Origin: Glaucostegus cemiculus
Lineage: Eukaryota
Direction: 5' to 3'
DNA length: 64,000 bases
Assembly (NCBI GenBank): GCA_976551045.1
Contig: CDPCPM010000073.1
Location: forward strand, 27,218,001 to 27,282,000
The translations under genes were made by a program, and so were the position numbers. This document shows positions 4,888-50,059 of the stretch, piece after piece (positions within the stretch are counted from its first letter, which is position 1; each line of letters starts with the position of its first letter). The notes under the pieces were generated by a model. It did no database searches and was not told the origin of the DNA. It saw only the letters and a list, made by a program, of their open reading frames with translations.

Positions 4888-5404
4888 TTTTAAATTACAA
4901 CAGAAGAACTTTTCAGAAAAGAGCGCAACACACTGGAGTTTCTGATCTTCTGCATTTAGCAGACAAGTATTAAAAGCTGGAATAAATGACAGTGATAAAG
5001 TGAATGGAGAGGCATTGTGGAGCCAAATGAAACCTCAAGTCTGGCTGCAATGAACAGTGCTTTATTAGATCTCATTGTTAACAGCTTGAGTACTAAGAAA
5101 GCAATAAAAATTACACTTTGCCAAAAACAGCTAACAAATAGAATGTGTGTTTACAGCCACTGACGCAAAAATATCCCCTGCCATTTGCCTATTAAATTAT
5201 CTGCAGAGTACGATAGAGCTTTATTTGCATTACCTTTAAAAGAAAGAAAAGCTTAATACTACATGTGAACTGATAGACCTAATTGAACTAATCAAACTAG
5301 TATTTATATTTTAACATACAACTAAATTTAACAATTGTTCTTCTTATTTCTCCTCATCCCAAACTAAAGACTTATTAACTACCACCTTAAGGATACAGTA
5401 GCAT

Positions 5405-6111
5405 TGTGCGCCAGGTTGGATCGGCAGTAAGGAAAGCGAATGCTATGTTGGCATTTATTTCGAGGGGTATAGTATATAAAAGCAAGGAAGTGTTGATGAG
5501 GCTATACGGGGCACTGGTGAGGCCTCACTTGGAGTACTGTGTGCAGTTTTGGGCCCCATACCTTAGGAAGGATGTGCTGATGTTGGAGAGGGTTCAGAGG
5601 AGATTTACTAGGATGATTCCTGGGATGAAAAAGTTTACATATGACGAGCGACTGTCGTCACTTGGACTGTACTCGTTGGAGTACAGAAGAATGAGAGGGG
5701 ACCTAATAGAAACGTACAGGATGTTGAAAGGAATGGACCAAGTGAATGTGGTCAAGCTGTTTCCCTTGGTGGGGGAATCCAGGACAAGAGGACACAAACT
5801 TAGAATTAGAAGAAGCAGGTTCATAACAGAGATAAGGAGGAATTTCTTTAGCCAGAGGGTGGTGAACCTGTGGAACTCCTTACCACAGAGAGCAGTGGAA
5901 GCCAGATCATTGGGGATATTCAAGAAGGAAATAGATAGATATCTAATTGGTCAAGGTATCAAGGGATATGGAGATAAGGCAGGGATTTGGACTTAGAATA
6001 GTAGGTTTTTTTTTTCCCCCCCCCACCTTCCCTTCCCTTTGGAGCAGACTCGATGGGCCGACTGGCCTGCTTCTGCTCCATTGTCTTGTGATCTTGTGAT
6101 CTTGTGATCTT
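5405..6111 (+). mobile_element. 5'-truncated young CR1 LINE (ORF2 C-terminus, 3' UTR, 8-mer tail)
   Basis: 196 open codons with LVRPHLEYCVQFWAP, LERVQRRFTRMIPG and FFSQRVVNLWNSLP. 3' hairpin GGAGCAGA...TCTGCTCC. Tail of (TCTTGTGA)3. Confidence 0.93.
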
Positions 6112-10440: not shown

Positions 10441-11684
10441 TATTTGAGGATAGTTTAAGTGAGGGTTTGTCCAACATGGAGAGGGGTCGTTTCAAGGTTC
10501 CAAGTGCAACAAGTTGGGAAGAGGTGCAGATGGGGCAAACCACCTGCAAAGACGTTGGGTCAAATGGTTATGCTGTACACAGCGTGTTTAATTATTTTAT
10601 AATCCAATTACGTGTTATTAAGTATAGACAACCGCACCCTTGAAGAATACATGACTTTACTAACTCTTACTTTTTGAATTCGTGCACACATATTAGAGAA
10701 ATTCAGGATCACAAACAAACACCCATAATTTCCATCCAGTTTAAATCACTTTGCCACTATAATTACAGACAGAACATGATGATATCGTTATTACATGCAA
10801 TTCTGGCAGAAAACCACAGAATGATGTTTATTTCCAGGCACAACACCAACTCAAACATTGCAGAGATTTTCAGACTGTTGTTTCCCATCCAATGCTAAAG
10901 TGGGTAAGTGCATACCTCTCAGGCTAGTGCAATGTCACAAATCTGGTTCTCCCAACCGCATCCACAGTTCACGTAATGAAGAAATAAATGTATTGGTAAA
11001 GGATTTCAAGGATCAGTCATCACTGCCCTAACACCATGTGTGAGCAGTAAAACAGCAAAGCAGGCATGGTAAAAATACCCATCAGCATCTATGCTGCATG
11101 ACTGCAAAAATCTCAAGGTTTACTAATAACAGTTTGCTTATAGCACATTGGTGCGATTATAAAAAGCTCTGGCAATCTCAACTCCATCGATTGCATTTCC
11201 TGCTGATTTGCATTTTTGGTGAGGATTTGCCCAGGGTTCTTTTTAATCCCAATTCCAAAGAAAACACATTATGTAGTAAAACTCAAGGCCCTCACAGACT
11301 TTGTTTTCTGCTAATCATTTTTCCTGAAGCACTTGGCTGTGAAATGAAAGCTTTGATGCCCGTTACCTTTTGGAATACAGCCACTAGCTGTAATACTTTA
11401 GCTTGTTAGACAGGAGCTGGCAGAAATCCAAGCTCTTTCATCCCTCCCCTTGTTTGGGGGAATGTCAAGGTTTCAGGCTGTCATTAACCAAACACACCCA
11501 ACACTGTGGCTGTTCTGCAAGTTGCGATGTTCTGGATAATGCTGCATCACTTATCAGTTTGATTACTAGGTTGGGCACTCACCAACTCTTTCCCACTTTA
11601 TATCCCCACCAGTCCTTTCATTCTATTGAACAAAGGACTGATAAAATGCAGCTTTCCATTACATTTCTGTACAAGCTCCTCTCT

Positions 11685-12297
11685 AAGTTCCTGGGTGTCA
11701 ACATCTCCAAGGCTCTATCCTGGGCCCAACACATTGATGCAATCTTGAAGAAGTCATGCCAGCAGCTCTACTTCATTAAGAGTTTGAGGAGATTTGGTAT
11801 GTCACCAAAGACTCCTGCAAATTTCTATAGGCGTACGGTAGAGAGCATTCTGACTGGTTGCATCACAGCCTGGTATGGAGGCTCCAATGTGCAGGATCGC
11901 AAGAGACTGCAGAGGGTTGTAGACTCAGCCGGCTCCATCACGAGCACTGTGCTCCCCACCATCAAGGACATCTTCAACAGGCAGTGCCTCAAGGCGACAG
12001 CATCCGTTATTAAGGACCCTCACCATCCGGGACATTCCCTCTTCACGTTACTATCATCAGGGGAGGTGGTACAGGAGCCTGAAGACCCACACTGAATGAT
12101 TCAGCAACAGCTTCTTCCCCTCTACCATCAGAGGACTGAATGGTCCATGAATCCATGAACACAACCTCATTATTCCATTTTTTGTACTGTTTATTTTGTA
12201 ATTTATAGTCGTTTTATGTCTTTGCACTGTACTGCTACCACAAAACAACAAATTTCACAACATATAAGTCAGTGATAATAAATCAGATTCTGATTCT
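11685..12297 (+). mobile_element. Rex1/Babar-like LINE 3' fragment
   Basis: KFLGVNISKALSW..LRRFGMSPKT..ESILTGCITAWYG..IKDPHHPGH. Tail GATTCTGATTCT. Confidence 0.88.
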
Positions 12298-26832: not shown

Positions 26833-27090
26833 ACAGCATGGTAGTGTAGTGGCTAGCCTAACGCTTTACAGCACCAGTGACCCAGGTTCAATTCCGGCCG
26901 CTGTCTGTAAGGAGTTTGTACATTCTCCGAGTGTCTGCATGGGTTTCCTCCAGTTTCCTCCCACATTCCGAAGACGTACAGGTTAGGAAGTTGTGGGCAT
27001 GCTGTGTTGGCACCAGAAGCATGGTGATACTTGTGGGTTGCCCCCAAAGCTGTATTTCACTGTGTGTTTCAATATACGTGGCTGATAAAG
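26833..27090 (+). mobile_element. tRNA-derived V-SINE-like element
   Basis: A box GTAGTGTAGTGG, B box GGTTCAATTCC. Sister copy at 53210-53507. Confidence 0.85.
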
Positions 27091-27580
27091 ATGTGGAAGC
27101 CATAGAGAGGGTGCAGAGGAGGTTTACGAGGATGCTGCCTGGAATGCAGAGCATGCCTTATGAAAGCAGGTTGCGAGAACTCAGCCTTTTGTCCTTGGAG
27201 AGAAGGAGGATGGGAGGGACCTGATAGAGGTATATAAGACGATGAGAAGTATTGATTGGGTAGATAGTCAGAGGCTTTTCCCCAGGGCTGAAATGGTGGC
27301 CACAAGAGGACATTGGTTTAAGGTGCTGGGGAGTAGATACAGAAGAGATGTCAGGGGTAAGTTTTTTACTCAGAGAGTGGTGAGTGCATGGAATGGGCTG
27401 CCGGAAGCAGTGGTGGAGGCGGATACGATAGGGCCTTTCAAGAGACTGTTAGATAGGTAGATTGAGCTAAGAAAAATAGAGGGCTATGGGTAAGCCTAGT
27501 AATTTCTAGTGTAGGGACACGTTTGGCACAGCTTTGTTGGCCGAAGGGCCTGAATTGTGCTGTAGTTTTTCTATGTTTTA
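27090..27580 (+). mobile_element. 5'-truncated CR1 LINE inserted in the SINE tail
   Basis: ERVQRRFTRMLPG and FFTQRVVSAWNGLP with a frameshift. 3' end GGCCGAAGGGCCTG..TTTCTATG. Confidence 0.9.
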
Positions 27581-30034: not shown

Positions 30035-30300
30035 ATGGAACATCAAACAGTACAGCACAGGAACACGCCCTTCAGCCCACCATGTCCACGTGAACATGAT
30101 GCTAATCTAAACTAATCCCATCTGCTGGGACCTGTTCTGTACCCCTCTTTTCCCTGCCTGTTCACGTGTCTGTCTAAATGCCTCTTAAATGTTGCTGTTG
30201 TATCTACTTCGACTGTTCACGTGTCTGTCTAAATGCCTCTTAAATGTTGCTGTTATATCTACTTCGACTTCCTGCCCTGGCAGCATTCCAAGCACCTACC
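30035..30300 (-). mobile_element. CR1-type 3' end containing a 55-bp tandem duplication
   Basis: Minus strand GGGCTGAAGGGCGTGTTCCTGTGCTGTAC tail. Duplicated units at 30158-30212 and 30213-30267. Confidence 0.75.
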
Positions 30301-31712: not shown

Positions 31713-33229
31713 TAAAACCATCCCTCACAAACATTCTGCAGATATATCCTGGAAGAAGCTCAGCATCTAGAAATGAGAGGACATTTCATCCCTGCAAACA
31801 GCTACCACCACAAAAGTCAAAACTAGTAATGCTGCAAAAAAAAATCAGATCCCAGTCCCTTCCCAAGTGACAACCATCTCTTTGACATGCATCACTTCAC
31901 TATAGTTCAGTCAAAACCTTAGACTTTCCATCATTATGGTTGCGTGTTCAACACAACAACGGCAGCAGATCAGAAAACTCCGGCACCTGCCCCTCAAGCA
32001 AATAAAGGTAAAGTGCTTCTTCTTTGAGCTTGCAGCAGCTCCATAGTCTATGGGTAGCTGCATTATTTGTGCTATTAAAGCTGACTAGACAAGTCTGCTG
32101 CCTCCGGGCTACAGTGAATGGATTCAGTAGCACAAACGGTGCAAGCCAGCTCCAAGGAGCTGAGCTAACTGAAGAGATGGTGCAAGAAACTTGGGTCCAT
32201 TCACTTAGGACAGGAGGGGCAGAAAATTCAGCAGGTGTGGGTAAAGGATAACTAAATACTGCAACCAGTCACAATTTTGGCAATATGTTATCTTCTGCTG
32301 AATGGTGCATACAAATCTATAACAACTGAGAAAAGAAAAGAACCAGATAGAAGTTCTAAAGCATTTGTGCTTTTTTTTTATTTTGCACAGCGAGTTGTGA
32401 CAGGAAAAGCAGATTCGATAATTCCTTCATATAGGGTAATGAATCAATACCTGAAGGGGAGAGGTTTATAGTGCTAGGCGGAAAATCTAGGGGCATAGGA
32501 TCAATTAACAAACTCTTTCAAAGGGCCAGCACAGGGCCAATGGGTCAAATGGGTTCCTTCTTCGGTGTGTAATTCTAAGTATTTGACCCAATCATTAATT
32601 GAATGGTTTATTAATGAGACTTGAGTGACAAAGAGCTAGGTATACATTTCCACAGATTTGAATACGATCTCAAATATTCACTAAAATATGTATGATAAGA
32701 TCATATTTTCATCTCAGAACATTTTGTCAAATTATAAATGTTGTTTCCAAATGCAAGAAACTATTGACTAACAATATTTTAAGTAATATCTTTCAGACTG
32801 CTTTAAGGGTGCAGATTTCAAATCTTTACAGTATGTATCTTCTTGCATTTTAGAGTCAATCATCTAAGCTGCTTTGCAGTTTAATATGGCTTACTATGGA
32901 TTAGACCAGAAGTTAAGAAGATTTGCCTCCTAATACTTACCAGGATAAAAGATATTTCATCCTTATGCCTCCATGGCTGGCAATTTGTGGTTTTGTCTCT
33001 GCTTAAGTCAAAAGAAACAGAAGAATCTGTTGTTTTGGTCTTGCAGTGGACTTTGTAGTAGGGTTTTACCACCTTAAGTAAAATAATTAGTGTTTTGGCA
33101 GCTTTGAAAAATCTGGAAAGGGAAAAGAAACTGAAGACTAGGCTGATCCCGCTGAAGTAATGTTGGTAATTCTGTTCACCATAATTCAGCACGACCCACT
33201 GTCACCGGAGAGGATTCAGTGAAGACCAG

Positions 33230-34058
33230 TGTTACGAAACCAGCAACAAAAGAAGCACACCAAGTCATACTTCAGTGTTAAAACTACTTTATTAATAACT
33301 ACATCCGATAATATGCAAAATAAGAATAAAAAGTTAGTATATTAGTACACAATAAAATGTTAAAATCTTAAACTATAACCCCAAAACTACTCGTCGTGTG
33401 TGTGCGGCAAGTTCCTAAACTCCCAGTCCAGGAATTAGTTCTTAAAGTTCAGTTCAGTAAGCCGTAAGATGACACGAATAAAGGCTTCTTCACAAGCACT
33501 GTCCACCGAAGACAAAATATAGATATAGAGAGAGATTAGAGAGGAATCACGAAATCCGAATGTTCCACTCGAAACTCAAACGACACTTCAGGGCTTACTC
33601 GGTTGTGACTTTCTCACCCTGAAAACTCCTTAATCGTGACTGTCCATGCAAATACCTGTGTTCTTCTACAGGTTAGCAGCAAAGTGAATTCCGTCACTTT
33701 GTTCCACAGTATCTGCCACTCTGAAGAGCATCCAAAATGTGGTTGTTCATGCAAACACCTGTGTCCTTCTACAGGTTACCAACAAAGTGAACTCCACTGG
33801 ACTACTCCAGAAATCCATCCACGGATTTTAGTGACAAACACAGTTACTGTCCTTCATCCAACGACAGAAACAAAACAAGCTGCCTTCTCTCCTTCTTCTC
33901 TCTTTCTTTCTGTCTGTCTGTCTCTCTCTCTCTTATCTTTTTCTTTCTTGCAATGATGTCACCACGTTAGTCTTATCTTCTGCTGACGTAATACGTTGCA
34001 CACACACACAATGTCCCATCTAAAAGGGATATTTGCCTAAGTAAGCTACTTCGTAACA
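33230..34058 (-). repeat. 3' LTR
   Basis: 829 bp at a constant offset of 5827 from the 5' LTR. Identical 106-aa incidental ORFs at 33636 and 39463. Preceded by a purine-rich tract on the minus strand. Confidence 0.96.
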
Positions 34059-34068
34059 CCTCCCACAC
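34059..34068 (-). other. Polypurine tract (short)
   Basis: Minus strand GTGTGGGAGG directly abutting the TG of the 3' LTR. Confidence 0.7.
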
Positions 34069-34183
34069 AAACAAAATTTTTTTTCAAAAAAAATTATTAT
34101 CCGCGCATATAGTTAGTGATGTTAGTAATTATCATCCTACATAATAACAGTATATCAGATTAGTAACGATATAGGTCTTTCGT

Positions 34184-37100
34184 TTAACATCGAGAAAGGC
34201 AATCAGCAATTACATTATCTTTGCCTTTAACGTGAATTATCGTGAGATCAAATTCTTGTAGAATTAAACTCCAATTTAACAGTCGTCTGTTTTTGTTTTT
34301 CACTCGGCTCAGAAACACCAACGGATTATGATCTGTGTATATAATCAATGGTTTCTGAGTTGGGCAAACATACACATTGAAATGTTGTAAGGCTAAAACA
34401 AGTGAAAGCAATTCTTTCTCTATCGTAGAGTAATTTTTCTGATGCTCATTAAACTTCTTTGAAAAGTAAGCTACAGGGTGGTCAATATCATCAAGGTCAC
34501 TCTTCTGCAACAACACAGCTCCTGCAGCTTCATCACTGGCATCTACTGCTAATGAAAATGGCTTTTCAAAGTCAGGTGACTTGAGCACAGGATAGTAACA
34601 CAAAATGGTTTTTAGCTTCTCAAATGCTTCTTGACAAGAATCTGTCCAAACAAATTTCACTCCTTTCTTCAGAAGATTAGTTAAGGGAAGAGCAATATCA
34701 GCAAAATTTTTACAAAATTTCCGATAATATCCAACCATTCCCAGAAATCTTCTAACAGTCCTGATGCCTGTAGGAACAGGGAATTCAGATATCACTTGAA
34801 CTTTTGCCTGAACAGGTGCTAACTTGCCTTGACCTACAACATAACCAAGATATGTCACAGTGGCATGGCCAAATTCACTTTTAGCCAAATTGACTGTAAG
34901 GTTAGCTTTGGAAAGTCTTTCAAACAACCTTTCTAATGCAATGATGTGATCCTCCCACGTATCATTCCCTGTCACTAGATCATCAATGTAGGCATCTGTA
35001 TGTTTTAACCCATGAATCACTGAATTGATCATTCTTTGAAATGTTGCTGGGGCATTTTTCATTCCAAATGGCAAAACATTGTATTCATACAATCCAGAAG
35101 GGGTCGCAAAGGCAGAAATCTCCCTTCCTCTCTCTGTTAATGGAACACACCAGTACCCTTTTAGTAAATCAATCTTTGTAAGAAATTTGGCCGTCCCCAC
35201 TCTATCTATGCAATCATCTACCCTTGGAATGGGGTATGCATCCGACTTTGTCACAGCATTCACTTTTCTGTAATCCGTACAAAATCTAATGGTCCCATCA
35301 GGTTTTGGCACAATAACACAGGGCGAACTCCAGTTTGAACTAGAACGTCTGATGATGTCATTTTCTAACATATACTCAATTTCCTGATCAACAAGTTTAC
35401 TCTTATCCACATTCATTCGATATGGGTGTTGTTTGATTGGTTTTGCATCCTCAACGTCAACATCATGGCTAATTATTGACGTTTTGTTTGGCACATTGGG
35501 AAAAAGATTTTTAAATTTTAAAAGTAACTGTTTCATCTGCTGTTTCTGTGAATCTTGTAAATGGTCCAACTTTGTCTCAAGGTTCTCCAAGATATTTTGG
35601 TTTTCTAGCCTTGCTGAAACAATATTTGGTCTACATTGGCCTTCCTCATTGTCAACAACAGATGTCTCAGGATCTTTCACCTCATTCACTGTGGCCACCA
35701 CTGTATTCCTCTCATAATACGGTTTCAACATATTTACGTGACAGAGTTGGGTTTTCTTGCGTCTCTCTGGGGTTTTTAGCAAATAGTTGAGGTCGCCTAT
35801 CTTAGATTCGATAATGAATGGTCCTTCAAACCGCGACTGCAATGGATTTGTCTGACTAGGGAAAAATGCGAGCACTTTTTGACCCACTGCGTATGTCCTT
35901 GGCTGAGCACGTTTGTCATAATATTCCTTCATCCTAATCTGGCTTGTTTTTAAATTCTCTTTCGCTAGCTCACAGACTTTCTTCAGCCGAGTTTTAAACT
36001 TTTGGACATAATCCAATAGACTCAACTGCACTTCTTCATTAACCCATTGTTCTCTTAACAACTCCAAAGGTCCTCTCACCTGATGTCCAAATACAAGTTC
36101 AAATGGACTAAATCCTAATGACTCCTGAATTGCCTCTCGAATGGCAAACAACAGTAAATGTATTCCTTCATCCCAATCCTTCGTGTTTTCAAAGCAATAA
36201 GTCTTCATCATATTTTTGAGAGTAGAATGAAATCTCTCCAATGCTCCTTGAGATTCTGGGTGATATGCAGATGACACAATCTGCTTTGCTCCCAGCTCAT
36301 GGATCAGTTGCCGAAACAAATTGGACATAAAATTACTGCCTTGATCAGATTGGATTTCTTTTGGCAAACCAACAAACGTAAAGAATTTTAAAAGAGCTTT
36401 TGACACTGTCTTGGCCTTAATATTTCTAAGTGGGATTGCCTCTGGAAATCTAGAAGTTGTACACATGATGGTTAACAAATATTGATTCCCAGCTTTAGAC
36501 TTTGGCAATGGTCCAACACAATCCACAATCACCTTTGAAAAGGGTTCACCAAAAGCAGGAATGGGTTTCAGAGGAGCCACAGGGGGTTTTTGATTTGGTT
36601 TACCTACCATCTGACATGTATGACAGGTTCGACAAAACATCACCACATCCTTTCTCAAACCAGGCCAATAGAATTGTTTCAAGATCTTCCCCACAGTTTT
36701 ATTCACCCCTAAATGACCACCTAAAGGCATGCTATGGGCCAGGTTTAAAATCTCATCCCGATAAACTTTAGGAACTACTACCTGATGAATAACTTCCCAC
36801 TCCTCATTCACAGTGACATGAGGCGGTCTCCATTTCCTCATTAACAATCCATCTTTGACATAATATCCAACTGGCACTTTTTCAATTTCCTCACTTGAGA
36901 GTGCTTTTTCCTTCAGTTCAGTCAGTTCAAGGTCTTTATTCTGTTCCACCATAAATTCTTTCCTTGACAAAGACAAATCTTTGTATTCAGGCTCACTACC
37001 AAAACTTTGATCCTCCAATGAAGACAAAAAAGTGTCAGACAAATCATCATAACTTTCCTCTTGTTTAGGACTATCACAAGGAACAATTTCAGACTGTGTA

Positions 37101-38884
37101 GAATTCTCGGCCTTAGCTAATTCTTTAGCTTTAGCTCGGGTTACTGCACAAGATGGATAAACGTCTGCGTCATCCTCAGATTCAGTAAAGCTTGGTTTAG
37201 TTGTTAACTGTACCACAGAAACAAATTCTTCACCTGCAAGGTCATTTCCCAATAACAAAGAAACACCCTCCACTGGTAAACTTGGTCGTATCCCTATCTC
37301 AACAGGTCCTTCCACAAACTTTGATTTTAGAAACACCTTGTGCAAAGGCACGAACATGGTATCACCTGTAACACCTCGCACTAGGTTTACCTCACCAGTT
37401 TCAGTTTCCTTACCAAAATTTAAAACACTGTCCAGCAAGAGAGATTGGGAAGCTCCAGTATCTCTAAGGATTTTCACTGGTACCTGGGGTGACCCATCCT
37501 TCAGTGAAACAAAACCTTCTGATACATATGAACGGAATTCCTCCCTCACCTCATCCAGCTTTTCAGTCTTCATCTCTAGCAAGGACTGATCTTTCACAAC
37601 CTCCCCTAAACCTCTTCTATTTCCGGGTTTAATGACTTGACAACAGGCAGTTGGCACAGCTCCCTTTTCTTGCTTTTTCTTCAAAACAGAACAGTCAAAT
37701 TTCATATGGCCAGGCTTCTTACAGTAATAACAAAGACGCTCAGCAGGTTTCTCCAGCACTGGCTTCTTGTCATCCTTCCCTTTCGGATTATCTCCCAATT
37801 TAATCTCTGGTTTACCTGGATTGTCTCTGTAACTCCTTTGAAAGGTTTTAGGTTGTCCCCATCTGTATTTATGGGTTAAAGCATAATCATCTGCCAACCT
37901 AGCAGTTTCTTGTAAAGTGTCCACATTCTTTTCATTTAGGTATGCAGCTATTTCAGCTGGTACACATCTTTTAAAGTCTTCTATTAAAACTAATTCTGTC
38001 AATTTGTTATAATCATCAACTACATCTTTCGCCATACACCATCGTTCAAAACATATTCTCTTTCCATTGGCAAACTCCATGTATGTTTGATCTGAAGTTT
38101 TCTTCAAGTCTCTAAACTTTTGTCTGTACGCTTCTGGTACCAACTCATACACTTTCAAGATTGCTTGTTTTACTTTTTCATAATCAGCTGCCTCCTCCAC
38201 AGACAAAGCAGAATAAGCTTTTTGAGCTTTGCCTTTAATCACACTCTGTAACATAAGAGCCCATCTCCTTTTTGGCCAACTTAAACTCGTAGCAACCTTT
38301 TCAAAATGTTGGAAATACTGTTCAACCTGATCTTCATCAAAAGGAGGGACTAATCTAACCTCCCTACTGGCTGAAAACTCATCATCAGAATCAGAATCTG
38401 AACTCTTTCTCTGCATTCTTAACTGATGTTTCCTTTGTTCCTCCCTCTCTTTATTTTCCAGCTCCATCCTCCTCAAATTCAATCGGTCCTTTTCTAACTC
38501 AGCATCTATCTTTCTTTGTTCTGCTTCAGCCTCAAATTTCAATCGGTCCCTTTCTCTTTCAGATTCCAGTCTCCTTTGCTCTCTTTCAGATTCTAGCTCT
38601 AATTTCTTTTGTTCTATTCTTGCTTGTTCCTTTTCAGCCTCTATCTTTGCTAACTGAATTTGGGCATCAGAAATCACTTGTTCACTGCCAGGAAATTGTT
38701 TTACTACTCCCTCTTCAAACACTTGCATCTTTACATAATGACCAGCTATTATTTTCTGGATATCTGCTTTTTTCATAGATTGTGTTACTGTCGTAAGTTT
38801 TAGCTCTGTAGCAAGAATTAATAATTCAGACTTCTTCATTCTCTGCAATCCACATGGTGTGGGTTTTTTCATAAACGCATCCAT
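34184..38884 (-). CDS. Gag-Pol polyprotein, 1566 aa from first ATG: coiled coil, capsid/SCAN-like, CCHC knuckle, protease, integrase, RT, RNase H
   Basis: Uninterrupted ORF. CYYCKKPGHMKFDC (~37691-37732). LRDTGASQS protease (~37450). HHCC, VDCVGP, SDQGSNF, ERFH and GPF integrase motifs (~35720-36900). RT with YIDD at 34979-34990. RNase H VDAS..EKELL..TDH..ADCLSR at the C-terminus. The ORF-track start at 38911 is a TTG; first ATG is 38884. Confidence 0.96.
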   Translation of the reverse strand: MDAFMKKPTPCGLQRMKKSELLILATELKLTTVTQSMKKADIQKIIAGHYVKMQVFEEGVVKQFPGSEQVISDAQIQLAKIEAEKEQARIEQKKLELESEREQRRLESERERDRLKFEAEAEQRKIDAELEKDRLNLRRMELENKEREEQRKHQLRMQRKSSDSDSDDEFSASREVRLVPPFDEDQVEQYFQHFEKVATSLSWPKRRWALMLQSVIKGKAQKAYSALSVEEAADYEKVKQAILKVYELVPEAYRQKFRDLKKTSDQTYMEFANGKRICFERWCMAKDVVDDYNKLTELVLIEDFKRCVPAEIAAYLNEKNVDTLQETARLADDYALTHKYRWGQPKTFQRSYRDNPGKPEIKLGDNPKGKDDKKPVLEKPAERLCYYCKKPGHMKFDCSVLKKKQEKGAVPTACCQVIKPGNRRGLGEVVKDQSLLEMKTEKLDEVREEFRSYVSEGFVSLKDGSPQVPVKILRDTGASQSLLLDSVLNFGKETETGEVNLVRGVTGDTMFVPLHKVFLKSKFVEGPVEIGIRPSLPVEGVSLLLGNDLAGEEFVSVVQLTTKPSFTESEDDADVYPSCAVTRAKAKELAKAENSTQSEIVPCDSPKQEESYDDLSDTFLSSLEDQSFGSEPEYKDLSLSRKEFMVEQNKDLELTELKEKALSSEEIEKVPVGYYVKDGLLMRKWRPPHVTVNEEWEVIHQVVVPKVYRDEILNLAHSMPLGGHLGVNKTVGKILKQFYWPGLRKDVVMFCRTCHTCQMVGKPNQKPPVAPLKPIPAFGEPFSKVIVDCVGPLPKSKAGNQYLLTIMCTTSRFPEAIPLRNIKAKTVSKALLKFFTFVGLPKEIQSDQGSNFMSNLFRQLIHELGAKQIVSSAYHPESQGALERFHSTLKNMMKTYCFENTKDWDEGIHLLLFAIREAIQESLGFSPFELVFGHQVRGPLELLREQWVNEEVQLSLLDYVQKFKTRLKKVCELAKENLKTSQIRMKEYYDKRAQPRTYAVGQKVLAFFPSQTNPLQSRFEGPFIIESKIGDLNYLLKTPERRKKTQLCHVNMLKPYYERNTVVATVNEVKDPETSVVDNEEGQCRPNIVSARLENQNILENLETKLDHLQDSQKQQMKQLLLKFKNLFPNVPNKTSIISHDVDVEDAKPIKQHPYRMNVDKSKLVDQEIEYMLENDIIRRSSSNWSSPCVIVPKPDGTIRFCTDYRKVNAVTKSDAYPIPRVDDCIDRVGTAKFLTKIDLLKGYWCVPLTERGREISAFATPSGLYEYNVLPFGMKNAPATFQRMINSVIHGLKHTDAYIDDLVTGNDTWEDHIIALERLFERLSKANLTVNLAKSEFGHATVTYLGYVVGQGKLAPVQAKVQVISEFPVPTGIRTVRRFLGMVGYYRKFCKNFADIALPLTNLLKKGVKFVWTDSCQEAFEKLKTILCYYPVLKSPDFEKPFSLAVDASDEAAGAVLLQKSDLDDIDHPVAYFSKKFNEHQKNYSTIEKELLSLVLALQHFNVYVCPTQKPLIIYTDHNPLVFLSRVKNKNRRLLNWSLILQEFDLTIIHVKGKDNVIADCLSRC

Positions 38885-39034
38885 TGCTACTGGTTTCCAC
38901 ACACACGCCAATTAAGAAAATGTATTGGACCAACCCCAATGTCCAAATTCAGACCTCCAGCACCAGTCTTAAGTTTGACTGCAAGCCAAATCTTTGGACT
39001 GGATCCCAGAACGACACTCATTAATCTTGGGAAG

Positions 39035-39052
39035 ATCCCGGACGAGCCCCCA
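39035..39052 (-). other. Primer-binding site for tRNA-Pro
   Basis: Minus strand reads TGGGGGCTCGTCCGGGAT, the 18-nt complement of the tRNA-Pro 3' end (same sequence as the MLV PBS). Confidence 0.95.
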
Positions 39053-39056
39053 ATTT

Positions 39057-39885
39057 TGTTACGAAACCAGCAACAAAAGAAGCACACCAAGTCATACTTC
39101 AGTGTTAAAACTACTTTATTAATAACTACATCCGATAATATGCAAAATAAGAATAAAAAGTTAGTATATTAGTACACAATAAAATGTTAAAATCTTAAAC
39201 TATAACCCCAAAACTACTCGTCGTGTGTGTGCGGCAAGTTCCTAAACTCCCAGTCCAGGAATTAGTTCTTAAAGTTCAGTTCAGTAAGCCGTAAGATGAC
39301 ACGAATAAAGGCTTCTTCACAAGCACTGTCCACCGAAGACAAAATATAGATATAGAGAGAGATTAGAGAGGAATCACGAAATCCGAATGTTCCACTCGAA
39401 ACTCAAACGACACTTCAGGGCTTACTCGGTTGTGACTTTCTCACCCTGAAAACTCCTTAATCGTGACTGTCCATGCAAATACCTGTGTTCTTCTACAGGT
39501 TAGCAGCAAAGTGAATTCCGTCACTTTGTTCCACAGTATCTGCCACTCTGAAGAGCATCCAAAATGTGGTTGTTCATGCAAACACCTGTGTCCTTCTACA
39601 GGTTACCAACAAAGTGAACTCCACTGGACTACTCCAGAAATCCATCCACGGATTTTAGTGACAAACACAGTTACTGTCCTTCATCCAACGACAGAAACAA
39701 AACAAGCTGCCTTCTCTCCTTCTTCTCTCTTTCTTTCTGTCTGTCTGTCTCTCTCTCTCTTATCTTTTTCTTTCTTGCAATGATGTCACCACGTTAGTCT
39801 TATCTTCTGCTGACGTAATACGTTGCACACACACACAATGTCCCATCTAAAAGGGATATTTGCCTAAGTAAGCTACTTCGTAACA
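39057..39885 (-). repeat. 5' LTR
   Basis: 829 bp, TG...CA ends with 9-bp terminal inverted repeat, followed after 4 nt by the PBS on the minus strand. Confidence 0.96.
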
Positions 39886-40094
39886 CCAGTGACGGCAGAG
39901 ACAGAGAAAGCTAATGGAAAATGGAAATAATGCTTTAGAGGAAAAAGACCTCAGTTTAGATCTTCTTCAGATATTCAACAATCTAAATGACACAGGTGAT
40001 TTGAGACAAAATAATATATCTGATGTAATCACAAATTCTATAAAAAGGGACATGAACCAAAGCTCAAATGTGAAGGTAAATAAATTATATTTAA

Positions 40095-40810
40095 ATATCT
40101 TAAATGCTGCTTGTTATATACATTAGTGACTTAAATGTGAATGTATGATTAGTAAGTTTGCAGATGGCACAAAAATTGAGTGTTGTTGATAGTGAGGAGG
40201 GTGGTCTTAGGCTGGCTGCAGGATGATATTGGCCGGTAAACTGGGAGGGAAATGGCAGATGGAATTTAAACCTGATAAGTGTGAGTTGATGAATTTTGGG
40301 AGGACTTGGAAAAAGTATTGAGGAACAGAGACGATGTGTAGAGGTCCACAAATCTCTAAAGGTGGCAGCACAGGTAGAGACAGTGGTGAAGGCAGTATAC
40401 AAGATGCTTGTCATCTTCAGCTAAGGCATAGAGTACAAGAACAGGGAAGTCTTGATACAACTTTCTGAAACGTTGGTTAGGTCATAGCTGGAATATTGTG
40501 TGCAGTTCTGGCAGCCACACTATAGGAAGAACATGATTGCACTGGAAGGGTGCATTGGAGATTCACCTGGATGTTGCTTAGGATGGAATTGGGAGGAGAA
40601 ACTGCATAGGCTGGGAGGGGAACTGATAGAGGTGTAAAAAAAAAATTGCAAGAGGAGATGGTAATAAACTAGTCACTATGGCAAACGTGTCTATGACCAA
40701 AGGGCATAAGTTTAGAAGGTGAAGAGTAAGAGGTTCAGAGGGAATCTGAGGAAGATTTTTTGCATCCAGATGATGGTTGCATTCTGGAACACAACCACCA
40801 TGGTGGAAAC
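40095..40810 (+). mobile_element. CR1 LINE fragment, degenerate
   Basis: Remnants ISKFAD-TK, WQMEFKPDKCE and LEYCVQFW. Confidence 0.8.
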
Positions 40811-44470: not shown

Positions 44471-46852
44471 ATGACTCAATTTCACTGCACCATTCATAAT
44501 CGCCTCCATTTCCGTCACCAACTTTTGATCCATCTTCATCCACTTCCTGGCAATATCTACCCCTATCCCCATCTCATTCGTCCTGCACATCACGGGCACA
44601 ACTCCCTCCAGCTGTCCCATCACAATGATCCCGTTTCATTTATTCTTCTGATTCAAGCACATGTCACTGGATCCACTGCCGACTTTCTCTGCTCCAGGAT
44701 CTTCCTGTTTTACCTTTCATGACTAAAATCCCAGAACCCTATCTCCACCCCTGCCTTCCTCGTCCTCCCGCACTTCCGTCCCGGGACGAGGCCATCCTCC
44801 GCTCTGGCGCCGCGGGTCCACCCTCTCCGCGTCTGCCGGACTGAGACCCCCGGATTCCCCCTGATCCCCCAGAGAGACCACACCGGCTGGTTCTCTCCGA
44901 GCGCCGCACACACCCGCCGAGTGTTTGCACCTTTGAGACAAGCGCCCCGCCGCCCTCTCTCTCCCTTGGAGAACAAACTGTTGCTTGTTGCTGGTGTGGC
45001 CCCGCTCCGCACCAGCCCGGGGACCCTGTGGCCGGGGTCAGGCGGCCGACGACTCAAGGTAGAAACACCACAGCTTCCTCGCTGGGTTTCAACGCGCCGC
45101 CAGGCTGCCCTTGCGAGGCTACAGCCAGTTCTTATTGCTCTTATATTTCTATTTGTTGCATTTGATACCCTCATACTACCCAACTTTTCAGTTCTGGGTC
45201 GGGTGAGCAGCGCGCTCTTGTTGTAGGAAAACATCCTCACAGACGAGCAGCTCCCCGTAGCAGGATCGGTGGGAATCTGCCTGTTCAACTGCAGCGCGGA
45301 ACCACTGTCACAGACAACCTTCCGACAGCGTCCATCATCGCGCCCACGGACAGAGTAACCCTGTTGATGTTACGTTGCAAGCGCCCCGACAATCTCACAA
45401 ATATATCTCACTCACAGAGAAAAGAAAACTAGACTCCGGTCTCATCCGCAAGTCACGGGGGATTCGTATTTCTTGGGTTTCTTCCGACGTTCCCCTCTCC
45501 CGCGGGGAAGTTACAACGCTTGTTTGGACCCGATGCCGGTATTCTACCGGTATCAGGAGAGCGAGCCGCTAAAGCCTCGCAGTTCCTCTGGTAGGAACTA
45601 CCACTGCCACCCGCTGCGCCGAACCAGGAGTGGAGGAACAGGCAGGGCAGGATTCCTAATCAACCTTGGAAGCTACAATACAGAAGTGGGGGCCACAGTC
45701 CGCGGACCACCGCCAGCATCCCCATCCCAACGGCGGCACCCTCAAGAGGCAAACAACCGAGGTTTCGTCTCGCTATCCCGGAACAAACAGGTCCATTATT
45801 CGGTGCAACTTTTAAGGAAAGTCAATTTCGAGAAATAAAAAAAGGGATCCGGGGGTCGGATCGAACTCGAGCTGGAATTGGACATTTCCAACCGGCTCAG
45901 CCATGGGTTTGCCGCTTGGCATTTAACGCCACGTTTCGCAACTACTTCCCAAACAAGCAAGGCTGTGGCGATTGTACCACAGTAAGATGTACGAATAGCA
46001 CAAGCAGCGCGCAGAGTACATCACACACCTATGCATTTCTGCTTCCCGGATAATCAAACACGAATCGTTCCTACAATTTCTGGCCTTACGATCTCATGTG
46101 ACATTAAATGTGAACAAGCACGCTATATCCATCTGCTGAAGCACACCAGAGCATTCAAGATCCTCAGCAACCATTGCGCTGTGCGGTTCCAGCGCAATAC
46201 ATTCCAAACACAATCTACGTGCTTTTAAATTGCGATGTTACATCCTGGGTCGACTGCCTCAGTGAAACACACTGGCAATGCAAAATCGTAAATCAGAAAC
46301 ATATCGATTCTAAATAGAGAAAACATTAAATCATGAGACGTGACTGCCAAAAAAAACCCCGACACCCTCGCTGAATCTCAATGAATGAGACCGATCTACA
46401 TTGCTTTCAGTGGACTGAATTTCGTGGGGCAAGTGGGAAGACGGAAGCGGCGCTTTCACAAAGATGTTTAAGAGTCGGGGGGTCAGGGCTGATCACTCAC
46501 AGCCGCATTATTTTTTGCTGCTGACGGCGGCGGCTCGCAATTGCTGGCTTTTGTTGCTGCCCGCGCCGACTGGGTGCACTTTCTCCAAGGGGAAAGGGGA
46601 GAGGGATGGGGGGCAGAAAGTACACCACCGAACGGGCAGGGGATGGGAAGCACTGAAGCCTCGGATACCCACATCAGGACCTGACAGTAACTGGGCTGGC
46701 GCATCACACCAGACGCGATCTGCTAACTTCGATGCAGCCAGGGCTGCGGAGTTGTGGAGGTGCAGTGCTACCCCCAGCCCCTTTCCCCCTGAACTCATTC
46801 ATTCACGATGGACTTGGGAAGTTGTGCTGGAGAACGCCGGGCGCGCACATAC

Positions 46853-47062
46853 CAGTCCCTGGCCAGGGAAGGGGAACCCTCTGCCGGGTGCTTCTCGGAC
46901 CTGCCGGGCTCTCTGCTTCTTGTCCTCGCCGCCTTTCTCCTCGCCGTCCAGGCTGCTAAAATTCCACACCAGCAGAGTCTGCACGAACAGCACGGTGAGC
47001 GCCACGATCACGGCGGATTTCGAGCGCCGCGCCAACTTTCGCCCGCACGCCGCGGCCACCAT
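46853..47062 (-). CDS. XYLT1: Xylosyltransferase 1, first coding exon (70 codons: cytoplasmic tail, type II TM helix, start of stem)
   Basis: Translation [39 protein letters not shown] matches the recalled vertebrate XYLT1 N-terminus ([39 protein letters not shown]). ATG at 47062-47060 in context AAAATGG. Phase-0 donor CTG|GTATGT at 46853/46852. Lies in a CpG island. Confidence 0.93.
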
Positions 47063-47160
47063 TTTCACTGTGAAGCCGCTATGCCGGCGGACTCCAGGTT
47101 AGCCGAACCCCAGCCGCCGCCGCCTCCAACCCCCCCCCCCCCATCCAACCCTGGACCCGG

Positions 47161-47457
47161 CCCCGCCCCCTCCCCGGCTCCTGCTCCCGCTCCAGCCAAT
47201 CGCCGCCGCCCTCTCCTCCCCGCTCCGCCAGCGGCCGGCCAATGGTGCCCGCTGCTCCCTCGGCGTCGGCCAATCGGCGGGCGGCTCAACCGAAACATCC
47301 GAGAACCAATTGGGATCAAGTCCTCTCAGCCAATCGGTGGCAGGAAGCTGCGGCTCTCCGACCCACCGTTTGGGCCCGAAGCCAATCAGGAGGCAGGTAG
47401 GGCTGTCGATCAAGGTCTTCGCTGCTGGGCGACAGCCTGCATGTATTGTGACGTCAC
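47161..47457 (-). promoter_or_regulatory. XYLT1 proximal promoter: GC box, six CCAAT boxes and a palindromic CRE
   Basis: CCCCGCCCCC at 47161-47170. CCAAT at 47196, 47239, 47270, 47306, 47330 and 47382. GTGACGTCAC at 47448-47457. All lie 100-400 nt upstream of the ATG. Confidence 0.75.
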
Positions 47458-50059
47458 CGTGGGAAAGTCTCTGTGTGTGAGAGAGCATTGTTGCTGTGCG
47501 TTTAGCGGCATTGGCGGCGGGGTGCGGAGGGGCCACGGGTGCCTGGTGTGCATCGTCTTCCCCGAGTTTAGAGCCACTAGGGGAGGGTACCCGGTGCCTC
47601 ACAGGGCTTGACCTCAACATCCACACACGACGAGCTGCAACTCGTTAGCAGAATTCCTCCCACTACCACATGCAGCGAGCAACAGCAGCGCTTCCTGCCT
47701 AGAAACCTTCCCGCTCCCATGGCCGTACCAGCCCCTGCGCAAAACCTTTGCAAAGTACATTTGTGTGTGTCTTTTTAAAAAACAAAAGCTGCATCTCATT
47801 AAAGGCCACCCTTGGTGCAACAGACCCCTCTAAAACAGATGGGAGAGGCGCTGTGCAGAAGATCCAATTGGTTCTTCAACCGCTCTCCAGAAATTCCTCC
47901 TGACTATTTTAATCATCGTGTTATCCTTTTTACGGGCCATTCAACACTAGGTAGTAAACAGGTGGCAAAGATGGCAAAACGCTAGATTTTTTTTTAAATG
48001 ATTGCAGATTCGGGAGCAAAATCGAATGATTCGGAATTCAATGTTGGAAGATTAGCGTATCTAAAAGAAATTCTTTTTTAGACAACTTAGCATTTCAGTG
48101 ACTGCAAAGCACCTTCAGAAGTCCTGAGATTGTGGAAGGCCCCATACAAATTCAAGTCTTACAGCTTCGCTGCCAATACTATGTGACTCATGGGGTGCTT
48201 ATTTTCAAAGGATGTGTCTGCAGTTTCAACACTTGCGAGGTCCGAATTTCCAATCGGTTTCGCTCCAAGTGAAAGCGCCGAGTTTCGAAAACTCACACTG
48301 AACTGGGGAAATAAGAGATTCGCAATCTTACTTCAGGCTGGAGATGGTTATTCCCTGAGCAACCCCCCCGGAATATTTTCTGTTCTATCGACTACATCGC
48401 AGCTGCGGTGTTTTTTAACCTTCGTCGGATCGCTCCAACTCTGGAGCACCACACAGCACAAGGTGGTTGGAAATTAATTCCGACGTAAGGCACCAATAAT
48501 CACACATAATTAACCTTTTCCGCTGTCCACTCTTCGAGTTTTCACACTTTGTTAAGCAGTTCATTAATATCAACAGTTCCAGGTCAAACGGCTTTTGTTT
48601 CGCAAAGCTTAATGTCTTTATGGTTGAAGGCTTATTTTCAATTGACCTGAAGTGTATTTTCTTTCAGCCTTTAACACAAAGCGTCTAAACTATCAGTTGA
48701 TGATATTGCTGCCGAATCAAATCGCTTTGCTGTCAAGTGGACTGAATTCGTAAGGCTCTCCACTTGCAACAGCTGTTCCCGGGCTAAAACACCATACACA
48801 AAATCATATCGCCATCAACTGTTCAATAGCACAGCTGCTCGAATATACGTGACTAAGATATGCAGTTTAAATGGGCCACGACTCTCTCATGAATATGTAA
48901 TATACACTCAAACAATCAAGCAGCTATCATTTCTATTTGAAAAACAAATTCGGGTGAGCTCCATTAGTTCCATCGATGTAAATGAGAAATTACGATTTAT
49001 TGATTAGTTTTCATATTTGAAACTTTTTTGACCTGTTTAACTAGTGTGCTAACGAACGACTGAGACTTCCGAATATTGACAGTCACGTGTATAGACGGTG
49101 CATTTTGAAATAGGGAATTATCCCATCTATCCTCTCCGACCTGCCTGAACAGCCAGATGCTCCAAAAACAGCCATGGTTACAGGTGCCGCACGCACTATG
49201 AATGAAATGGAGCAGCGGAAAATAAATATTCAGTAGCCTTTAGCTTGTTAAGTCCCTGAGCTACTTAAGTACCCCAAAGATTGGGAAACCAGATTCGCAA
49301 TGTCCAAGTCCGCAAACCCCCTGGCTTTGCACTCTAATTCAATCCAACTCTTTAGCAAATATGGTGAGGTTGTAACAACCTGTTCTACTCAAATAACAGG
49401 AAACACTAGCGCAATCTGGCATCGTTACTTGTCAGTAATTTGGATGAATACTCGAAGGAGGGAAATTGCCAAGCGTTGGGGGAGGAGCAAGTGATTAGAA
49501 ATCCTGTGACAGCTTCTAAACGGAGCAGGAACAGGCAACCAATGATTCTTCGAAGTATTTTTTTTAAGAAAGATTTTTGTTTGGTTTCTACTCGACTGTG
49601 TCATAATTATCAAGTGTTGCAATAACGGTTTTTGCAGTCTTACAATATCATGCCACTTATATAATGCAGAAGAACAAAAGTTTGTTGAAAGGGGAAACAC
49701 CAAGGTAAAATGTGATTATTCTGATTTATACGTTATTGCTAAATTAAAATGGAATTGGCTAAAACCAATGAAAGGTTAAACACAAAGTGTTTCAGATAAA
49801 TAGCCAACCTCAGTGAGAAAGAACATAAAAGTTCTGTTCTATATCCAGGTGAATAGCTTGAGAGAGGAGAAGTCATTTTGTTGTGCATAGGAAGGGAGCT
49901 AAACTAGAAAATGAAGTATGTATTTATCTTGGGTTCACCTAAAACTCCTACTGGAAGTATCTTAACTCTTGCCCAGTACCTTTCACCTGTCACTGAAGAG
50001 CTCACTGATCTGCAGGAGGATTCTGATCCAGCCACACTGAAGTCCAGGCATTTAAATTC

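Follow-up and report, generated by a model that had tools for sequence, protein, structure and literature searches.

The question raised by this locus is what occupies positions 33230..39885 of a 64,000-nt stretch of Glaucostegus cemiculus DNA (assembly GCA_976551045.1, contig CDPCPM010000073.1, positions 27,218,001 to 27,282,000; the whole stretch is called the window) and how long it has been there. The segment spans 6656 bp on the minus strand and is best read, from its sequence, as a full-length, autonomous, env-less Gmr1-like long terminal repeat (LTR) retrotransposon that was put into intron 1 of XYLT1 by the integrase of its own family, late compared with nearby repeats, and that has stayed without visible mutation since; we give this reading a probability of roughly 0.9. 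An initial annotation had called the element intact, probably mobile and very recent. The family—Gmr1-like, with the integrase before the reverse transcriptase (RT) and a SCAN capsid—and the host gene, XYLT1 at its intron 1, were identified beyond that annotation. The boundaries and cis signals of the element are as follows.

33226..33229, no strand: target site duplication CCAG, left copy
33230..34058, minus strand: 3' LTR, 829 bp, TG...CA, with an imperfect 103-nt internal duplication in U3
33288-33293, minus strand: predicted polyadenylation signal, the only AATAAA of the 3' LTR on the element strand
34059..34064, minus strand: purine run GGGAGG touching the 3' LTR, polypurine tract candidate
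39035..39052, minus strand: primer binding site (PBS), 18 nt
39057..39885, minus strand: 5' LTR, 829 bp, same sequence as the 3' LTR, with AATAAA at 39115-39120
39886..39889, no strand: target site duplication CCAG, right copy

The LTRs had been described as 829 bp long and free of differences by eye, and alignment of 33230-34058 with 39057-39885 bears this out with 0 mismatches in 829 positions; the five short microsatellite runs per LTR are identical between both. The LTRs have TG...CA termini and a 9-bp terminal inverted repeat. The perfect target site duplication claimed in the annotation is found on both sides of the element: lengths from 3 to 8 were tested and a match was seen at 4 alone, and the chance of a 4-bp match is approximately 0.0045. 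The perfect 18-mer PBS likewise stands. It lies 4 nt past the 5' LTR, is the sole copy within the window and equals the tRNA-Pro primer sequence, as a human tRNA-Pro reverse primer begins with these 18 nt (excerpt of PMC12217144) and a murine leukaemia virus (MLV) PBS probe has the identical sequence (excerpt of PMC4587795). The purine run GGGAGG is likely the polypurine tract, a function assigned by its position, and is unusually short; a structured RNA ahead of it was not supported (z = -0.99; 33 of 200 shuffles fold equally well). The LTRs carry a CpG observed/expected ratio of 0.68 compared with 0.22-0.28 in the non-island flanks, and the window contains no N. The imperfect duplication inside the LTRs, at 33636-33795 and 39463-39622, has a period of 103 nt and a 57-nt core that is 86% alike; it is possibly a duplicated enhancer.

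The coding part consists of a single open reading frame (ORF) with the following features.

34184..38884, minus strand: single gag-pol ORF, 1566 amino acids (aa) and stop
34250..34648, minus strand: RNase H, aa 1413-1545 (Pfam RT_RNaseH, RT_RNaseH_2)
34838..35311, minus strand: RT, aa 1192-1349, YIDD at 34979-34990 (Pfam RVT_1)
35717..36775, minus strand: integrase, upstream of the RT, aa 704-1056, with an HHCC zinc finger (aa 704-760), a D788-D847-E883 core of 35-residue spacing and an SH3-like C-terminal domain (aa 1009-1056)
37454..37462, minus strand: aspartic protease active site DTG, D475, present in 120/120 relatives
37691..37732, minus strand: nucleocapsid CCHC zinc knuckle, aa 385-398
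37868..38137, minus strand: SCAN domain, the C-terminal capsid lobe, aa 250-339
38687..38884, minus strand: small helical domain at the Gag N-terminus, then a charged stretch; SAP/LEM/Rho-N-like shape as a lead only

The claim of a 4.7-kb ORF with all catalytic motifs holds. The frame spans 34184-38911 on the minus strand, 1575 codons from stop to stop, without an internal stop or frameshift, and its product comprises 1566 aa as counted from the first Met at 38884. The domains follow the order SCAN, CCHC, protease, integrase, RT and RNase H as judged by Pfam, with SCAN matching at an E of 8.8e-12 (45 bits vs a cut-off of 27); for aa 441-590 Pfam gave no protease match. The DTG, HHCC, D-D(35)-E, YIDD and RNase H residues are all present—17 of the 17 catalytic or zinc-binding residues checked are kept and agree with 97.5-100% of 118-120 aligned relatives. 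At columns conserved to at least 90%, the copy departs in 18 of 468 cases (3.9%), compared with 0.2-7.5% and a median of 2.6% among the relatives, and 11 of these 18 departures are common to a sawfish copy. As far as the sequence tells, the copy is probably still competent. The distance from the gag-pol stop to the 3' LTR is 125 nt and leaves no space for env. Two further candidates were rejected: a sub-threshold Pfam match to TcdB_N was dismissed as chance (E 0.22, 12 bits vs a cut-off of 27), and a 44-codon upstream ORF at 38887-39021 on the minus strand, whose stop lies 2 nt ahead of the gag ATG, is matched by 6.4% of shuffles.

The element was placed by the signature of an integrase before the RT and a SCAN-ended capsid in a Ty3/Gypsy element. 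A SCAN-type capsid followed by protease, integrase and RT-RNase H is the Gmr1-like organisation in the accessible part of 10.1101/2025.03.03.638093, and an integrase upstream of the RT is a Gmr1-like feature in that of PMC8220671. The element combines a Ty3/Gypsy-type RT and RNase H, an integrase before the RT, a SCAN capsid and a fused ORF without env. Among solved structures, its RT-RNase H matches Ty3 Gag-Pol best (E 1.3e-127), and spumaviral and gammaretroviral RTs far more weakly (E 1e-42 to 1e-31). The integrase-before-RT order is shared by 111 of the 112 relatives showing both motifs, from 120 examined. On this architecture, the element is a Gmr1-like Ty3/Gypsy element (Metaviridae) and a new member of a known clade. 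The RT of Copia-type elements is Pfam RVT_2; Ty1/Copia is excluded, RVT_1 being the sole RT type among 11 Pfam families and only the domain order being Copia-like.

Gmr1 of cod and Gmr1-Gmr4 of pufferfish feature the same order of SCAN, protease, integrase, RT and RNase H, a fused ORF and no env. The pufferfish elements, according to the part of PMC11117352 at hand, have a single fused gag-pol ORF of 1506-1634 aa, no env, a size of 6058-6465 bp and LTRs of 337-518 bp; the ray element is of similar build with 6656 bp and 1566 aa, and its LTRs of 829 bp are longer. Its RT is 53-58% identical to those of five named teleost relatives, which form a separate well-supported group. Yeast Ty3, although the closest solved structure, has its integrase after the RT, uses two frames and lacks SCAN. 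MLV has the same 18-nt tRNA-Pro PBS and differs in having env, another domain order and a distant RT (E ~1e-31). The SCAN domain is also common to the vertebrate SCAN zinc-finger proteins, in which it is reportedly derived from a Gmr1-like capsid (accessible part of 10.1101/2025.03.03.638093); in the ray element it stands in its native Gag context, and Pfam matched neither a C2H2 array nor KRAB there.

The protein search yielded 2133 relatives out of 8000 scored candidates, no protein labelled Gmr1 being among the matches, and its top match comes from the sawfish Pristis pectinata. The Pristis cluster has 17 gene-model members, of which 15 are listed, from 14 loci, and the full-length one shares 94-99.6% identity with the 14 others listed. 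This full-length member is 81% identical to the ray copy across the whole polyprotein. The identity of the Pristis family (e.g. XP_051892124.1, annotated as uncharacterized) to the ray copy is 93% in the RT, 92% in the RNase H and 88% in the integrase, compared with 66% in the N-terminal part of Gag and 70% in the nucleocapsid region; by these values, the two are distinct subfamilies. An RT tree was built from the window copy plus 18 named references (19 rows; midpoint root, no type element, no outgroup). In it, the ray copy is sister to the Pristis element with a support of 100/97, and the pair is joined by those of Hypanus and Silurus with a support of 100/100; five other teleost elements fall elsewhere.

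Three observations were made among these relatives. The element of the catfish Silurus asotus, with 70% RT identity, falls among the batoid elements, close to those of marine invertebrates; this may hint at horizontal transfer or at an ancient common lineage, the tree speaking neither for nor against transfer. The Hypanus sabinus protein XP_059847699.1, which bears the name 'trimeric intracellular cation channel type A isoform X1', is made up of the C-terminal part of a Gmr1-like integrase together with the RT and RNase H and is probably a gene model running through an intronic element. Relatives of full length also appear under the names of Campylobacter and Candidatus Thiodiazotropha, probably as animal-host contamination of bacterial assemblies.

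The host gene is identified by one exon of the window.

46853..47062, minus strand: coding part of XYLT1 exon 1, 70 codons, donor GTATGT at 46852

XYLT1 encodes xylosyltransferase 1, the enzyme that starts proteoglycan sugar chains. Exon 1 codes for its first 70 residues, which are identical to Mobula in 66 of 70 positions, to Mobula, Narcine, Hypanus, Hemitrygon and Pristis in 65-66/70, to skates in 49-50/70 and to sharks in 46-58/70, which places the host among the non-skate batoids; no further XYLT1 exon was found in the window. Counted from exon 1, 6967 bp of intron 1 precede the element, which is in sense orientation. A CpG island at 44700-47600 holds exon 1, and six CCAAT boxes (47196-47382) and a TGACGTCA site (47449) are located directly upstream of it. 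Other settings of the insertion were considered and rejected. A coding exon is rejected by the frames across the pre-insertion site, none of which runs beyond 34 codons without a stop, another repeat by the lack of a self-match near the site, and the vicinity of a tRNA or structured RNA gene by 0 tRNA genes and 0 Rfam matches. A 77-codon open frame with a donor-like site (39893-40123, plus strand) adjoins the insertion; it has 0 matches among 1.84 billion representatives and no Pfam family.

The life cycle that such an element would follow can be laid out from established Ty3/Gypsy LTR-retrotransposon biology, and the signals and domains involved are seen in the sequence. The 5' LTR would drive a minus-strand RNA ending past the AATAAA of the 3' LTR, and its single polyprotein would be cut by its own protease into SCAN capsid, nucleocapsid, integrase and RT/RNase H. 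In the particle, minus-strand DNA synthesis would start from host tRNA-Pro on the PBS and plus-strand synthesis from the purine run; two strand transfers would yield identical LTRs, upon which the integrase would insert the element DNA with a 4-bp stagger. Nothing in the analysis accounts for the way in which one ORF would give the usual surplus of Gag.

Several findings weigh against the reading as a complete, competent and unmutated Gmr1-like copy. The purine tract is only 6 nt long. The ORF has a CpG observed/expected ratio of 0.33, near the flank values. The 64-kb window holds no second copy of the element: neither another copy nor a solo LTR was found in its rest, where the best blastn matches are 21 and 27 bp long and tblastn gave no match. 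The clade placement comes from architecture and not from a tree with the type element Gmr1. Seven of the 18 departures from conserved columns are absent from the sawfish copy; none is catalytic, and one of them could disable the protein.

The relative age of the insertion follows from its surroundings. Elsewhere in the window, the six repeat pairs with a length of 100 bp or more show identities of 74.5-90.7% with a median of 78%, confirming that the surrounding repeats are eroded, and the element is clearly the youngest repeat seen in the window, far younger than its neighbours. LINE-like (long interspersed nuclear element) fragments occur at 5391-5996 (plus strand), 11394-12095 (plus strand), 27080-27500 and 40200-40800, which we take to resemble the 3' ends of CR1/L2-type elements; two such fragments have open frames of 201 and 233 codons, and one has a Pfam ALKBH8_N match. 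A 55-bp tandem duplication at 30158-30269, 98% alike, is recent.

The absolute age is less sharply bounded. With 0 differences in 829 bp, LTR divergence has a 95% upper bound of 0.36%. At the epaulette shark mutation rate of 7e-10 per base per generation (excerpt of PMC10587355)—a rate from one species that is applied to the ray by assumption—this corresponds to at most 2.6 million generations, with a range of 1.3-12.9 million over the confidence interval of the rate. Adding the intactness of the ORF together with an assumed 10-fold CpG rate and an indel rate gives a bound of approximately 1.4 million generations, and all cases together give a 95% bound of 0.7-12.9 million. Identical LTRs are a weak clock here because rays mutate slowly, and the element may be as young as one generation or as old as about a million generations or more. 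Of the annotated 'very recent' insertion, the youth relative to neighbouring repeats therefore stands, whereas 'very recent' itself is plausible but has to be read against the bound of 0.36%, i.e. 2.6 million generations.

An insertion that is very recent and still polymorphic, from a family transposing now, has a probability just short of even. It would account for the zero LTR differences, microsatellite runs included, for the intact ORF and for the high CpG content of the LTRs. Sense-oriented insertions in genes are usually selected against over time, so the orientation in XYLT1 favours it as well, as do the near-identical multi-copy sister family in sawfish and the young activity peaks of pufferfish Gmr elements (accessible part of PMC11117352). 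The age bound of 0.7-12.9 million generations, dependent on rate and assumptions, speaks against it, and so does the precedent of a coelacanth endogenous retrovirus with 99% identical LTRs: the sister species carries a solo LTR at the orthologous position, which makes that retrovirus older than the species split (excerpt of PMC4255032).

An older, fixed insertion of hundreds of thousands to millions of generations, silenced, no longer mobile and kept pristine by slow ray mutation and possibly by LTR gene conversion, is a serious possibility at somewhat below even odds. It draws on the low shark mutation rate and the age bounds. The probability of identical LTRs is 0.19 at a divergence of 0.2%, but drops to 0.016 at 0.5% and to 0.00025 at 1%; LTR gene conversion, moreover, leaves the intact 4.7-kb ORF, the target site duplication and the PBS unexplained. 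Since the nucleotide diversity of the epaulette shark is 0.002 (excerpt of PMC10587355) and LTRs are identical in 19% of cases at this divergence, a polymorphic and a fixed insertion are inseparable from these data. Present-day polymorphism or activity of the element thus stands at near even odds. The structurally complete, autonomous LTR retrotransposon of the annotation is upheld; 'possibly polymorphic' and 'active family' are plausible but not established by identical LTRs.

It is quite unlikely that the LTRs in truth differ somewhat and were made identical by assembly or polishing. Polishing can homogenise repeats, but unique flanks with the correct target site duplication, an intact ORF and PBS and the absence of N and frameshifts fit a young element regardless of LTR identity. 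A domesticated host gene or an endogenous retrovirus, suggested by the PBS identical to the MLV PBS-Pro and by SCAN domains in host genes, is very improbable given that neither env nor space for it exists, that the integrase precedes the RT instead of following the protease, RT and RNase H as in endogenous retroviruses, that the RT-RNase H is nearest to Ty3 and far from retroviral RTs, and that identical LTRs and multi-copy relatives speak against domestication.

In the 46.8 kb of intron, splice acceptors were ranked by a home-made simple pyrimidine score, and 0 of the 27 strong acceptor-like sites lie inside the element; a strong gene-trap acceptor was rejected on this count. A weak acceptor with a branch-like motif at LTR position 560 scores below the 27 stronger sites, and a transcript starting in exon 1 would pass five AATAAA before reaching the element. 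XYLT1 may be affected by the insertion, but nothing observed supports this.

The N-terminus of Gag was compared with known folds. Its first 66 residues were modelled as three short helices (single-sequence fold, mean predicted local distance difference test score, pLDDT, of 72.7). The best structural match is the Rho N-terminal domain (Z 6.4, root-mean-square deviation 4.4, 52 aligned), followed by endonuclease VII, SAP and LEM domains at Z 5-6, and no match of the fold search reached Z 8. Pfam gave a sub-threshold Rho_N match (E 0.021), and in an atlas comparison a SAP cluster was the third match (0.76). The SAP/LEM/Rho-N likeness of this model is weak in each line, such scores being common for small helical models. 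A segment similar to this domain is visible in sawfish and invertebrate relatives. A literature search found no paper on a Gag N-terminal SAP/LEM-like domain.

A more far-reaching proposal joins these threads: that a Gmr1 subfamily is moving in rays now, that this copy is a segregating allele acting on XYLT1, and that the Gag N-terminus tethers particles or integration complexes to chromatin. In that case, the acceptor at position 560 of the 5' LTR and the poly(A) signal could divert part of the XYLT1 transcript in an animal whose skeleton is made of cartilage. Taken as a whole, we regard the proposal as unlikely.

Gmr1-like elements are known and abundant in fish, and the element itself is ordinary in this respect. 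A literature search, with subscription papers, Repbase and Dfam outside its scope, brought up no description of batoid Gmr1 elements or of their activity, and the accessible portion of a manta-ray preprint gives only Gypsy/DIRS1 totals of 2.5-3.7%; a Gmr1-like ray family may be catalogued already. The copy is of interest as an intact natural member of the class of elements from whose capsid the SCAN domain arose, and it is suited to structural study. It also carries a caution, namely that identical LTRs in sharks and rays are not proof of recent insertion. The copy is also a candidate marker of present elasmobranch transposition, and if the family moves now, transposition would possibly be a sizeable source of variation in animals whose point-mutation rate is among the lowest measured.

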